The position numbers and the translations under genes were made by a program. A stretch of 63,432 bases of DNA, counting the filler, from Octopus bimaculoides (lineage: Eukaryota): the NCBI RefSeq assembly GCF_001194135.2. It is 5 parts of 5 records of this genome, joined end to end, with 100 filler letters (N's around TTAATTAATTAA, not from the genome) between each part and the next. Parts side by side here need not be neighbours in the genome. Positions count along the whole stretch, not along the records: positions 14,427 to 31,421 come from NC_069008.1; positions 31,522 to 49,089 come from NC_068996.1; positions 49,190 to 61,539 come from NC_068981.1; positions 61,640 to 63,432 come from NW_026375776.1; 1 more part is not named here. One strand, given 5' to 3'. The notes under the pieces were generated by a model, which was not told the origin of the DNA, did no database searches, and saw only the letters and a program-made list of their open reading frames with translations. Shown piece after piece: positions 16,481-63,206 of this stretch; the stretch's first letter is position 1; every line of letters starts with the position of its first letter.

Positions 16481-18129
16481 GTAAGGATAATCTGGGAAAT
16501 TTTGTCTTTTTATCTCCCGACGATTTTCTTCACGCGACGCATCTGTTATACGCAACATCCCCCCCCCCCNNNNNNNNNNNNNNNNNNNNNNNNNNNNNNN
16601 NNNNNNNNNNNNNAAAACATATATATATATATATATATATATATATATATATATTATACACACATCTATCTATCTATCTATATTTCTATCTATCTATAGG
16701 CATTCCTCATTTCTCATATTATTTAGTTCTTTAAGAAGAGTAGTGTTGACTGTGACTTCGAAGTTCCGGCCTGGTTAGAGTTCAACGAAACTTCGAAGTT
16801 ACTGTCAATATTATTCTCGTTAAAGAATAATAGATATATATATACTCTACGAAAAGAATCGAGCAATCATTCAGTTTAATGTAGAAATTGTCTTTTTTTC
16901 TTTCACAACTCCATATAAAACAAACACACACACACATACACACACATATATATAATAATAATAATAATAATAATAAATGAGTATATGCATATATACGTAC
17001 AGGTATGTGCATACCTACGTCTACCTGTATATATAGGTGCATATGTGGGTACAGGACATTGCAAACAAAACGTAGACAAAACATAATAGCCAGAGTACAG
17101 AAAACACAGGCCACATAGAGAACATTTTCCTTCATCATCTACCCCCATTCTAACACAGGCGTTTCGAAGAGTAGGGCATATATATATATATATATATATA
17201 TATATATATATATATATANNNNNNNNNNNNNNNNNNNNNNNNNNNNNNNNNNNNNNNNNNNNNNNNNNNNNNNNNNNNNNNNNNNNNNNNNNNNNNNNNN
17301 NNNNNNNNNNNNNNNNNNNNNNNNNNNNNNNNNNNNNNNNNNNNNNNNNNNNNNNNNNNNNNNNNNNNNNNNNNNNNNNNNNNNNNNNNNNNNNNNNNNN
17401 NNNNNNNNNNNNNNNNNNNNNNNNNNNNNNNNNNNNNNNNNNNNNNNNNNNNNNNNNNNNNNNNNNNNNNNNNNNNNNNNNNNNNNNNNNNNNNNNNNNN
17501 NNNNNNNNNNNNNNNNNNNNNNNNNNNNNNNNNNNNNNNNNNNNNNNNNNNNNNNNNNNNNNNNNNNNNNNNNNNNNNNNNNNNNNNNNNNNNNNNNNNN
17601 NNNNNNNNNNNNNNNNNNNNNNNNNNNNNNNNNNNNNNNNNNNNNNNNNNNNNNNNATAGTGCTGATGAACGAAATCTAGATTCATTCTAGTAATCGCGA
17701 AATCGGACGATACACAGTTAAGTCTATTTAAAAGAAAGTTGGTCATCTTCTGTTGGTTGTTTTTTTCCTCGCATTGGGTACTAAATGTGGTTATTTTGAG
17801 AAGTCCACTGAGTGGCGTTATTATTTTTCTATAATAATGCCCTTTATATAAATATATATATAGATAGATAGATAGTGTGTGTATGTGAATTTACACACAC
17901 ACACTGGATATATATTCTTTCATTGAACAGGCGTAATTTTCTTTCTACGCACTTATTGCAAATCTATATAATATAATATGTATGTGTGTGTATATGTATA
18001 CTTAGTGTATGGTATATAGATGTGTGTGTGTATAAAGTCGACATTGAATGTATGTGTGTATATAAACACAATGTGAGAACGTGTAGTCATGCATGTCGTG
18101 TCTAAACATTATGAATGTCTACATATTGT

Positions 18130-19140
18130 GTTCTAGTCCACGTTAACTTTGATCAAATAGATTTTTGATCGAAGATGTTCTTGGCTATGGCAATCCAGTC
18201 TTCTTTATTGTAAGCATGATTTTAAATGTGTTCTCTTAAAGACGATAGAGTATGCGTTTTATGGAGATTTGGCTGCTATTTCGAGTCATTCGGACCACCA
18301 AGCACCACCTCCCTCCATGGTTCGTGTATGTATGCTTAGTTGTGTGTCTGTGTATGTATTGGCATATGTATGTTTATGGTGTGATTTTGTGTATACATGT
18401 GTATGTCGTTTAGCCCAAGGCAACCTCTGATCCAGTGGATCCATGATCGGAAGTGTCCCAGCTATAATTATATGCTTTTCAAGGCATAATGTACCTATGT
18501 GCACTTTATTCAATGTGCCCGTCCATCGGGTGTTTTAAAAACAGATTTGTTTTTTTTAGGAGATTTGACTGTTATTTCTAGTATTTCGAGCGACTGCGTA
18601 CAGGCTTTCTCGTTGACTCACCCGTGTAATGTTGTTTAGCCCCACGTCAAAGGTATTCCAGTTATGACCATCACCCCTTATATTTATTCATAGTGTATCT
18701 AGGACTACATTATCTCATGTCTTCTTCATTATTACTATTGTTTAGCCTCGTGCCAAGTCCTCATCCAGCAGACCAATGGTCAAAGATACTCCAGCCGTGG
18801 CCATCCTGTCTTTTATTCAGCCATAATGTATCTAGGACTATACTATCCAATGTTACGTCCTTGTTATTATTTCGTGTTTAGTTCTTGGTCAGCCCTGATC
18901 CAGCAAACATGGATTGAAGGCGCCCCAGCTGTGACCATCCTGTCTTTTATTTAGACAAATTGTATCCCAAGTCAGCCCTGGTCAAGTAGAACTATGATGA
19001 AAGGTTTTTACCATTAAGGACCATCTCGTGTTTCCTTTATCAGGGACTACATTGTCTAATGTAATCCTCTTCTTGATTTAAGATTGTGTGGTCTACAGGA
19101 GTTTTGACTGCTATTTCTAGCAGACTTAGTTACCACATAG
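18130..19140 (+). repeat. Tandem cluster of a short interspersed repeat (GTTTAGCC..GGTCA.CCCTGATC...GACCATCC.GTCTTT...TATCTAGGACTAC)
   Basis: 5-6 degenerate units; dispersed relatives near 51250(-), 60340(-) and 60640. Confidence 0.7.
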
Positions 19141-19436
19141 AAGTCATCTTTGATTTTCATACGTGAATATATAATAATAATAATAATAATAATAATAATA
19201 ATATATATATATATATATATATATAAATAATAAATGAGTATATGCATATATACGTACACCTGTATATATAGGTGCATATCTGGGTACAGGACATTGCAAA
19301 CAAAACGTAAACAAAAAAATAATAATAACCAGAGTTCAGAAAACACACAAGCCACATAGAGAACATTTTCCTTCATCAGCTGCCACCATTCTAACACTGG
19401 CGTTTCGAAGAGTTATATATATGTATGTATATATGC

Positions 19437-19583
19437 AGGCGTGGCAGTGTGGTGAGAAGCTTGCTTCCCAACCACATGATTCCAGGTTCAGTCCCACTGC
19501 GTGGCACCTTGGGCAAGTGTCTTCTATTATAGCCTCGGGCCGACCAAAGCCTTGTGAGTGGATTTGGTAGACGAAACTGACAG
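19437..19583 (+). mobile_element. SINE family A 5' half (cut by gap)
   Basis: Head and core match. Confidence 0.88.
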
Positions 19584-19989
19584 NNNNNNNNNNNNNNNNN
19601 NNNNNNNNNNNNNNNNNNNNNNNNNNNNNNNNNNNNNNNNNNNNNNNNNNNNNNNNNNNNNNNNNNNNNNNNNNNNNNNNNNNNNNNNNNNNNNNNNNNN
19701 NNNNNNNNNNNNNNNNNNNNNNNNNNNNNNNNNNNNNNNNNNNNNNNNNNNNNNNNNNNNNNNNNNNNNNNNNNNNNNNNNNNNNNNNNNNNNNNNNNAT
19801 ATATATATATATATATATATATATATATATATATATATATATACACATATATACTCTTGTTAACTTCCACTCTCTCTCTAGGTAACTGTTTCTGTCTCTC
19901 AGGCACACTCTAATCTTTCATCATCTGATACAAGATCCCCACCTCCCTCCAATGCCCTCTCCCCTCTCAAAGACTCTTTATTTTACAGA

Positions 19990-60834: not shown

Positions 60835-61150
60835 GCGCATGGCTCAGTGGTTAGAGCGTCGGGCTCATCGTCATGAGGCAGTGAGTTCGACTCTCGGACT
60901 GGGCTGTATGTTGTGTTCTTGGGCAAGGCACTTTATTTCACGTTGCTCCAGCTGTAGAAATGAGTTGCAATGTCACAGGTGCCAAGCTGTATCGGCTTTT
61001 GCCTTTCCCTTGGATAACATGGGTGGCGTGGAGAGGGGAGGCATGGGGTACTGCTGGTCTTCCATAAACAAACTTGCCCGGACTTGTGCCGCGAAGGGTA
61101 ACTTTCTAGGTGCAATCTCATGGTTGTTCATGACCGAAGGGGGTCTTCAT
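60835..61150 (+). mobile_element. tRNA-derived SINE family C, full length
   Basis: TGGCTCAGTGGTTAGAGC A-box, GAGTTCGA B-box, TGTGTTCTTG.GCAAG core; other copies at 33262-33572(-), 26460-26622 and 23383-23520. Confidence 0.88.
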
Positions 61151-61539
61151 ATGCCATAGTAACACTGACACGTCTTTTTCCCACTACCTATTAGACATAC
61201 TCAAAGCAAGTCATACTTCACACTTGCACTTACACCAATCATATCACTGAAGGAATGATGTAAAAACTGTAAGAGAGAGAGAGAGAGAGAGAGAGAGAGC
61301 TTGCTGCTTCTTGACAGATGAAAGTATCACTTGGTGGTCTACTTGCTACATGGATGCGTAACAATGATTTAATCCATGTAAGGTGATAATAATGCATATC
61401 AGCTGGTCTCTCTGCTCAACAAGGGAGCTTCTGCATGGTCTCTGAATCTGCTGGAAATCTCTTGCAAATCACACTCTGCCGTTTTAAATGAAGGACATAT
61501 GGAACAACGTAGTCCCTGATGTACAAAAAAAAAAAAAAA

Positions 61540-61639
61540 NNNNNNNNNNNNNNNNNNNNNNNNNNNNNNNNNNNNNNNNNNNNTTAATTAATTAANNNNN
61601 NNNNNNNNNNNNNNNNNNNNNNNNNNNNNNNNNNNNNNN
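61540..61639. other. Artificial scaffold-join spacer N44-TTAATTAATTAA-N44
   Basis: As above. Confidence 0.95.
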
Positions 61640-62237
61640 TATATATATATATATATACACATGTGCATGCACACACATACACACACACGTCTATACATAA
61701 CTGTCGGACAGTAGAAATGAGTGATCAAGACTGCATTGGTGGTTGAAGTTTCTTTATTTGTGAGTTAAGGCTACCATTGGTTTCATGTTATGAAAAGTTG
61801 CTAAGATATTAAGAAATTTTTCTGGACATGAAACCAATGGTACCCTTAATACACAAACACATACACACACACACACTCACACACACACAAACGCTTATAT
61901 ATGGCAGGAAATGGAATGTGATCCAATACACAGCTGCTGCTGGATCATAATCATCTATGTAATTATTTATAAAATAATTTATATGATGGCATGGGACTGA
62001 AAACTCAGCAATTTGCAGCTGTTGCCACTGCACAGAGACAAATGTAATTTGTAATTAAAACCTGTTCATTCCCTCTTCTTGCTCTATAAATTTTTATATA
62101 AATTCTATACACTAATTGAGTACCACATGTATATCCACTAAAAGGAGTAATCCTGCTGTACGATGGTATATGATAGCCAATAACTGTATATAAGCTTTTA
62201 AATCCACCTTATGAGGTTATTACCTAGATAATATTGA

Positions 62238-63206
62238 ATATATATATATATGTATGTATGTACATGTGTCTCCACTCGTACGGTATTCCACAACTTTACT
62301 TTATTATATATATATATATATATATATATACTTTATTTTAAAGCAGCAAAAATATCAGAAAAACTGTTACTCAGAGTTTCACATTCCCGTTCGTTGGACA
62401 GTTTTGTTTCTAAACAAATCTGTCTGATGACCGGGAACATGAAACTCTGAGTAACAGTTTTTGTGATATTTTTACTACTTTTTAATAAAGTATATTACTC
62501 TACCTCTGGTATTTGGGTACTATTTTTCCCACCTTGTTTCGCATTTATGTGCTTAATCTGGTATATATATATATATATATAATCCGGTATATATATATAT
62601 ATATATTTGTATGTATGAATATATATATATATCGATGCTATTATGCAAGAGTGTCCTAAGTCCAAAATGAAAAAGTAGTTTCNNNNNNNNNNNNNNNNNN
62701 NNNNNNNNNNNNNNNNNNNNNNNNNNNNNNNNNNNNNNNNNNNNNNNNNNNNNNNNNNNNNATATATATATATATGTATGTATGTACATGTGTCTCCACT
62801 CGTACGGTATTCCACAACTTTACTTTATTATATATATATATATATATATATATACTTTATTTTAAAGCAGCAAAAATATCAGAAAAACTGTTACTCAGAG
62901 TTTCACATTCCCGTTCGTTGGACAGTTTTGTTTCTAAACAAATCTGTCTGATGACCGGGAACATGAAACTCTGAGTAACAGTTTTTGTGATATTTTTACT
63001 ACTTTTTAATAAAGTATATTACTCTACCTCTGGTATTTGGGTACTATTTTTCCCACCTTGTTTCGCATTTATGTGCTTAATCTGGTATATATATATATAT
63101 ATATAATCCGGTATATATATATATATATATTTGTATGTATGAATATATATATATATCGATGCTATTATGCAAGAGTGTCCTAAGTCCAAAATGAAAAAGT
63201 AGTTTC
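62238..63206. repeat. 445-bp identical direct duplication across an N gap (62238-62682 = 62762-63206), probably an assembly artefact
   Basis: No differences seen by eye; the copies abut both sides of a 79-N gap. Confidence 0.85.
62327..62494. repeat. Palindromic element with two divergent hammerhead-like motifs (duplicated at 62851-63018)
   Basis: Arms TATACTTTATT...CTGTTACTCAGAGTTTCA / TGAAACTCTGAGTAACAG...AATAAAGTATA around TTTGTTT-CT-AAACAAA. Confidence 0.9.

Follow-up and report, generated by a model that had tools for sequence, protein, structure and literature searches.

The window analysed here is a stretch of 63,432 nucleotides from the genome of Octopus bimaculoides (assembly GCF_001194135.2), made up of five parts joined end to end; it is AT-rich and microsatellite-rich and has an N count of 6,091. 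It contains five palindromes of mutually unrelated sequence (elements A–E) whose arms carry outward-facing hammerhead ribozyme motifs or halves of them. An original prediction had described four inverted repeats, at 16.8, 33, 35 and 62 kb, and suggested that they might be ribozyme palindromes processed at the RNA level in the manner of retrozymes. These four (A–D) were confirmed, with arms identical at 41/53, 128/133, 214/254 and 72/84 positions, respectively, and both arms of each carried an outward motif. The fifth palindrome (E, 61757–61857), a single-arm copy of its family (F, 20403–20488), a lone hammerhead (G, 17657–17690) and one-sided extensions of the palindromes had been missed. The palindromes are probably insertion stubs of an endonuclease-bearing Penelope-like element (PLE), each consisting of two short copies of a hammerhead-bearing terminal repeat in head-to-head arrangement, the 3' ends facing outward.

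Element A occupies 16716–16837 and carries only (G)GAA-ACUUCGAAGU half motifs, as had been proposed, but the span first given for it (16746–16808) is the inner part of the true palindrome. The palindrome of element B (32958–33254) holds an intact type I hammerhead in its left arm (33013–33101, minus strand), with a helix I of 5–6 bp, the core box CUGAAGA (33095–33089), a helix II of 10 bp closed by a 38 nt loop, GAAA and the helix III palindrome ACAUAUGU; its predicted cleavage site follows GUU, between 33018 and 33017. Family sequence carries on in the left arm to about 33115, and the junction of the two arms (33116–33121) lies inside an 8 bp palindrome (33115–33122). The right arm of B adjoins a very high-copy repeat (33255–33570; contig depth >10⁶), which we take to be SINE-like (short interspersed nuclear element).

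Element C (34949–35495) has CCGAUGA and ACUCGAGU in both arms, decayed helices I and II, arm sequence extending about 115–130 nt upstream of the cores and a 42 nt AT-rich spacer; inward-facing AT-rich half motifs in the spacer (35206 and 35243) were judged to be due to chance. A GC-richer fragment without a Pfam match adjoins it (35540–35880, minus strand), with a motif that presumably resembles the 3' end of an RTE-type long interspersed nuclear element (LINE). Element D (62326–62561) comprises a palindrome (62326–62495) with a 2 nt spacer, CT, and a right arm in which CUGAUGA (62424) is followed by GAAACUCUGAGUA, with a helix I of 4 bp. Its surroundings (62238–62682) recur as an identical 445 bp block across an N gap (62762–63206, plus strand), which is probably an assembly duplicate or scaffolding artefact and was not counted as an insertion.

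Element E (61689–61857) has palindrome arms identical at 36/44 positions, with GAAACCAAUGGUA in both, and F (20403–20488, minus strand), which contains GAAACCAUUGGUA, matches one arm of this family at 77 % over 86 nt. The lone minimal type I hammerhead G (17657–17690, plus strand) reads CUGAUGA-AC-GAAA-UCUAGA-UU and has a helix I of 4 bp; an N gap swallows its upstream side, and it may belong to a sixth palindrome as a single arm or mark where a longer PLE ends. G is followed by about 165 nt that end in a TA repeat (17657–17850, plus strand). Overall, the hammerhead was intact in the left arm of B and near-intact in the right arm of D and in G; the rest were decayed or half motifs.

The helix III palindromes predicted for the four inverted repeats (ACAUAUGU, ACUCGAGU, ACUC-U-GAGU and ACUUCGAAGU) were found as described and facing outward. 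GAAA and a palindromic helix III pointed outward in both arms of all five palindromes, with one mismatch in GAAA in two arms (GAGA in the right arm of C, GGAA in the left arm of A). The prediction that every arm has the full hammerhead geometry held for this outward GAAA-helix III part, but both core boxes were kept in only three of the 10 arms (left of B, left of C and right of D), and the hammerhead was the minimum-energy fold in one, the left arm of B. Among the six arms of B, C and D, C(U/C)GANGA was present in four and accompanied by GAAA in three; both core boxes with a helix I of at least 4 bp occurred in two, and helix II as well only in the left arm of B. The deviating boxes were UUAAUGA (right arm of B) and CCAACGA (left arm of D). 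No CUGANGA box, allowing up to one mismatch, was found upstream of the half motifs in A (70 nt) or in E.

A descriptor scan for GAAA, a palindromic helix III and UH gave 24 matches in the window, compared with 6.9 ± 2.4 (maximum 14) in 200 local dinucleotide shuffles. Full motifs with a helix I of at least 3 bp numbered four (three distinct, the other being the duplicated copy at 62.9 kb) against 0.01 in 300 shuffles, which speaks against a chance origin. When inverted repeats were intersected with motifs, with microsatellites masked and one mismatch allowed in GAAA, the four top-scoring distinct inverted repeats all carried an outward motif in both arms and, with E included, this was true of five of the 15 distinct inverted repeats scoring at least 30 bits. 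The motif scan and the folding thus support the view that these are type I hammerheads of the PLE kind with a palindromic helix III. Among the best 150 of 209 rows of an Rfam search (E ≤ 5) there was no hammerhead family, the matches being microRNA-hairpin noise and one unrelated row. Two inverted repeats lacked the motif: a 66 bp palindrome (85 %) at 53040–53105 without a hammerhead half, which could be a stub with its junction downstream of the ribozyme, and a weak 260 bp inverted repeat (65 %) at 4034–4293.

Family sequence ran past the palindrome on one side only at B (at least 114 nt on the left), D (66 nt on the right) and E (68 nt on the left); at A and C the picture was ambiguous. The extension of B is a 3' extension (32844–32957, minus strand) that enters an N gap, and 49 of the 68 nt at E are shared with F. 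D is bordered by (TA)n on both sides and E by the same 16 nt CA-repeat word on both flanks.

The B family was followed in contigs of four public sequencing runs mapped to 32844–33330 at 80 % likeness. In the two large runs 5,316 and 4,745 contigs fitted the region, and summed contig depth over the arms, which is not a copy number, was 7 × 10⁴–3.7 × 10⁵ in run X1 (33–101 for single listed contigs); these depths leave no doubt that the family is highly abundant. Across the junction (33116–33124) depth fell to 52–170 in X1 and to 155 or 0 in X8, and X16 and X19 gave 0; this collapse relative to the arms indicates that the centre of B is private to this copy. Sixteen joints were found, and 11 of the 15 listed jump from the left to the right arm, each at another place and in one or two contigs; the remaining four were one opposite-strand junction, two cases of mirror continuity and one deletion within an arm. 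The B family therefore has at least 12 centres. Seven of the 11 left-right joints leave no hammerhead in either arm, three leave GAAA-helix III alone, which is the state of elements A and E, and one is mixed; several joints have additional letters or short fold-backs where the arms meet. Each of the four runs had contigs that span the passage from the left end of B into the extension (32897–32988, 32877–32991, 32886–32986 and 32930–33084).

Substitutions in the B family avoided the ribozyme. None of 30 substitution sites fell within the 85 of 386 positions that form the core or helices (Fisher p = 4 × 10⁻⁴), after five low-depth junction rows, two rows in the SINE-like repeat and three second-allele rows had been dropped from the 40 shown; two of these excluded rows overlap with where the right arm begins. 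The absence of substitutions from core and helices indicates that the hammerhead is conserved at the level of the family, and the ribozyme is thus conserved in the parent B family and dispensable in the palindromes. The 38 nt loop II (33041–33078, minus strand) varied more than any other part of the family, and folding predicts an additional hairpin within it. B-family contigs also occurred in two runs of guessed RNA origin, which are uninformative on cleavage; none of the listed runs carrying the family is on record as RNA.

Folding predictions depended on what was transcribed along with the ribozyme. Folded in isolation, the left arm of B formed helix I with a probability of 0.96 and helix II with 0.99. 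Neither helix formed (probability 0) when the transcript spanned the entire palindrome, and adding only the natural 3' flank of the left arm lowered helix I to 0.01. The right arm of D gave 0.02 by itself and 0 in the context of its palindrome. Two copies of the left arm of B were predicted to pair via helix III, the dimer lying 11.8 kcal/mol below two monomers, which is in line with hammerheads of the dimer type. Each strand of a palindrome carries one sense motif with an antisense copy upstream of it. With a single sense ribozyme per strand, two cuts cannot free a unit that could circularize, and the upstream antisense arm abolishes the hammerhead fold in read-through RNA, so the palindrome hairpin is predicted not to self-cleave and excision of the retrozyme kind does not fit. 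Same-strand tandem hammerheads were not found, the sole same-strand repeat being the probable assembly duplicate at 62 kb. Given also that the centre of B is private and that most of the 11 other centres lack a hammerhead, the part of the original prediction that made these palindromes retrozyme-like RNA-processed units is not supported.

Head-to-head motifs of the same pattern were found at no fewer than 117 loci in metagenome contigs, with arms of at least 30 nt in 53 of the 117 matches listed; open reading frames (ORFs) flanking these loci include animal-type PLAT, VWA and C-type lectin domains. A duplication of at least 8 bp was present in 30 of the 54 rows with enough flank, compared with five of 270 flank-swapped controls, and when rows sharing a flank were merged 27 of 49 sites had duplications of 8–16 bp. 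A one-sided tail of 23–55 nt accompanied the duplication at 27/27 of these sites, though duplications without a tail were allowed. The largest family showed 17 centres among 21 loci (two duplicates dropped), and one 12 nt centre recurred at four of the 21 (L003, L026, L027 and L103); it is centred on the micro-palindrome AGCT, occurs with three helix II variants or subfamilies and is possibly a fold-back hotspot. As these loci represent other families in other hosts, they demonstrate a general pattern without proving that the octopus elements belong to the PLEs. Patterns built on the centre of D and on the arms of B gave no matches in metagenome contigs and in viral contigs, respectively.

Much of this structure has been described for PLEs. 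Severe 5' truncation of insertions was reported, frequently combined with an inverted, likewise 5'-truncated copy and with a tail of 30–40 bp at one end (PMC8557442), and head-to-head was given as the commonest arrangement, with junction palindromes, duplications of 8–10 bp and solo pseudo-long terminal repeats (PMC3846280). The head-to-head structure itself is therefore already published for PLE insertions. The octopus elements share with the insertion unit of endonuclease-bearing PLEs, as presented by Arkhipova et al. (2013; PMC3846280) and Craig et al. (2021; PMC8557442), the inverted 5'-truncated copy, the junction palindrome, the extension at one end and the AT-rich or microsatellite targets; they differ in consisting of two terminal stubs only, with no linked ORF. 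A set of 30 recently active Penelope families is listed for O. vulgaris (PMC13282606, Table 1). No publication on such stubs in octopus was found in the open-access literature, a search that did not cover repeat databases.

The observed outward geometry, variety of B junctions and one-sided extensions, together with the folding prediction, are the basis on which we read the palindromes as PLE stubs; the enzyme and its priming are inferred from in vitro work on an anole PLE (PMC11167929), and the subsequent joining of the cDNAs is likewise an inference. The PLE protein would cut both strands of an AT-rich target, and cDNA would be primed from both ends, at two neighbouring starts in the terminal-repeat RNA, giving arms that differ by a tail. 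Both cDNAs would stop early and join mid-way, with a small palindrome or microhomology as a frequent meeting point, so that the centre of the palindrome could fall anywhere. A centre upstream of the core would leave a whole hammerhead in each arm (C and D), one inside loop II would leave half motifs (A and E), and one downstream would leave no hammerhead. The hammerheads would be passengers from the parent repeat, conserved there and decaying after insertion.

The anole protein, from Poseidon PAc of Anolis carolinensis, was reported to cut and extend both strands (PMC11167929); the tail was found there to be the stretch between two reverse transcriptase (RT) starts, hammerhead mutants still inserted, and RNA ends at the cut site were not seen in the experiments described. 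Two-strand cutting, two RT starts and a dispensable hammerhead would account for the arms, the tail and the passenger ribozymes of the octopus elements, although complete insertions and junctions were not reconstituted in the work described and no sequence links PAc to the octopus families. Minimal hammerheads with a palindromic loop 3 were reported to be abundant in metazoans, with few mapping to full PLEs, and their activity to be low and dimer-dependent (Cervera and de la Peña, 2014; PMC4209133), in which PMC6765202 agrees. The octopus motifs share with those of PMC4209133 the type I topology, a short helix I, the palindromic helix III/loop 3, many unrelated families per genome and a predicted dimer. 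They differ from the hammerheads presented there in the 10 bp helix II, 38 nt loop and lack of a bulge after A9 in B, in the C at position 4 in C and probably D, and in a helix III of at least 4 bp as judged by palindrome length; activity of the octopus motifs is a prediction.

Several observations weigh against the stub interpretation. The five window palindromes all lacked a target duplication in unique sequence; microsatellites border A, D and E, and B ends at an N gap, yet the flanks of C are clean and still show none. The octopus extensions (66, 68 and at least 114 nt) exceed the 30–40 bp published in PMC3846280 and PMC8557442. PLE ORFs, which the original prediction proposed to look for nearby, were not found: Pfam showed no PLE RT, GIY-YIG or transposase domain in 188 of 198 filtered window ORFs, its matches being LINE-type RVT_1 and zf-RVT fragments and DMAP1, and no PLE ORF in 62 of 95 long metagenome-locus ORFs, among which one RVT_1 fragment, its type within RVT_1 not assigned, lay about 0.9 kb from a motif. 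A motif scan of all 117 metagenome loci likewise revealed no PLE ORF, a 53-aa open frame downstream of the left hammerhead of C had homologues among none of nine candidates, and the single phmmer match of a 49-aa frame downstream of B (26 % identity) was rejected as a tandem-repeat artefact. Membership of the octopus families in the PLEs is thus proposed without an ORF link or a clean duplication in the window. In addition, the list of B joints is skewed towards short palindromes by short unitigs and by a reference right arm that lacks the core, a longer master with a fixed centre may exist for the B family, and the read-contig test covers this one of the five families. Twenty further substitution rows lay outside the substitution test, and single-base deletions occurred in A-runs of helix I (33098 and 33197–33201). 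Finally, a comparison of each arm with its own partner and with other loci in the metagenome set was non-discriminating (4/18) because young subfamilies are near-identical.

The alternative that survives best, which we nevertheless regard as rather unlikely, is that at least some families, D foremost among them, are non-autonomous palindromes of fixed form whose entire hairpin is copied in trans by a PLE protein. The tight closure of D by its 2 nt spacer with a hammerhead in each arm, the 12 nt centre recurring in one metagenome family and the failure to tie an ORF to any of the families would all suit such copying, as would the argument that animal retrozymes are ORF-less PLE derivatives (bioRxiv 10.64898/2026.07.22.740005). 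The same preprint defines retrozymes by same-strand tandem hammerheads, in which two ribozymes free a monomer; the octopus elements share with these non-LTR (long terminal repeat) retrozymes the ORF-less state, the type I hammerhead and the relation to PLEs, but their hammerheads stand in inverted pairs, each strand having a single sense motif, which is suppressed in read-through folding. The private centre of B beside 11 others also speaks against a fixed hairpin, and the recurrent metagenome centre, on AGCT and with three helix II sequences, fits repeated formation. If fixed-centre mini-elements of the 62 kb type did exist, they would be retro-MITEs (MITE, miniature inverted-repeat transposable element) whose own fold-back keeps the ribozymes off, and they would seed long double-stranded RNA in an animal that edits its RNA heavily.

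Loss of the centre is a known fate of long palindromes, and the stubs might once have been longer head-to-head PLE pairs that were later shortened by deletion across an unstable centre. Such deletion would likewise yield varied centres and loss of hammerheads, and we give it a small chance, below that of hairpin copying. Against it, additional letters or short fold-backs separate the arms at several B joints, the arms of B are 96 % identical and hence young, yet already minimal, and PLE copies are described as 5'-truncated upon insertion (PMC8969392). Movement by a DNA transposase as MITEs, with hammerhead-like letters present by chance or capture, is very improbable: the octopus elements do resemble MITEs (as outlined in PMC8969392) in being short, ORF-less, high-copy repeats with inverted arms, and the (TA)n around D could hide a TA duplication, but no duplication typical of a MITE superfamily was seen at the arm ends of the window palindromes, motifs exceed the shuffled background and keep a strict outward position in five unrelated sequences, and the elements have unequal ends, a single-arm copy (F) and variable centres, so that for B, with its one-sided run-on past the repeat and at least 12 centres, this explanation is largely refuted.

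The octopus palindromes are therefore likely to follow a pattern known from earlier work rather than to constitute a novel type of mobile ribozyme. If they are indeed PLE stubs, many short hairpin repeats of octopus that look like MITEs or are filed as unknown would be PLE stubs as well, and the share of PLEs in the genome would be undercounted. Such stubs would also record where two cDNAs start and meet, i.e. the unresolved step of PLE insertion.

The window also contains a gene and decayed retrotransposons. Exons of DMAP1 lie at 20611–30659 on the plus strand (79–100 % identity to Octopus proteins), that at 26728–26958 being 97 % identical to DMAP1 of O. bimaculoides and O. vulgaris, in accordance with an Octopus host; the window yielded no exons encoding the final ~95 residues of the longest isoform. 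The single-arm copy F sits just upstream of the exon at 20611. Decayed non-LTR retrotransposon fragments with RVT_1 and zf-RVT matches are located at 6900–8476 (plus strand), 38278–39392 (minus strand) and 53885–54373 (minus strand), and 53885–54040 matches 38523–38677 at 85 %.

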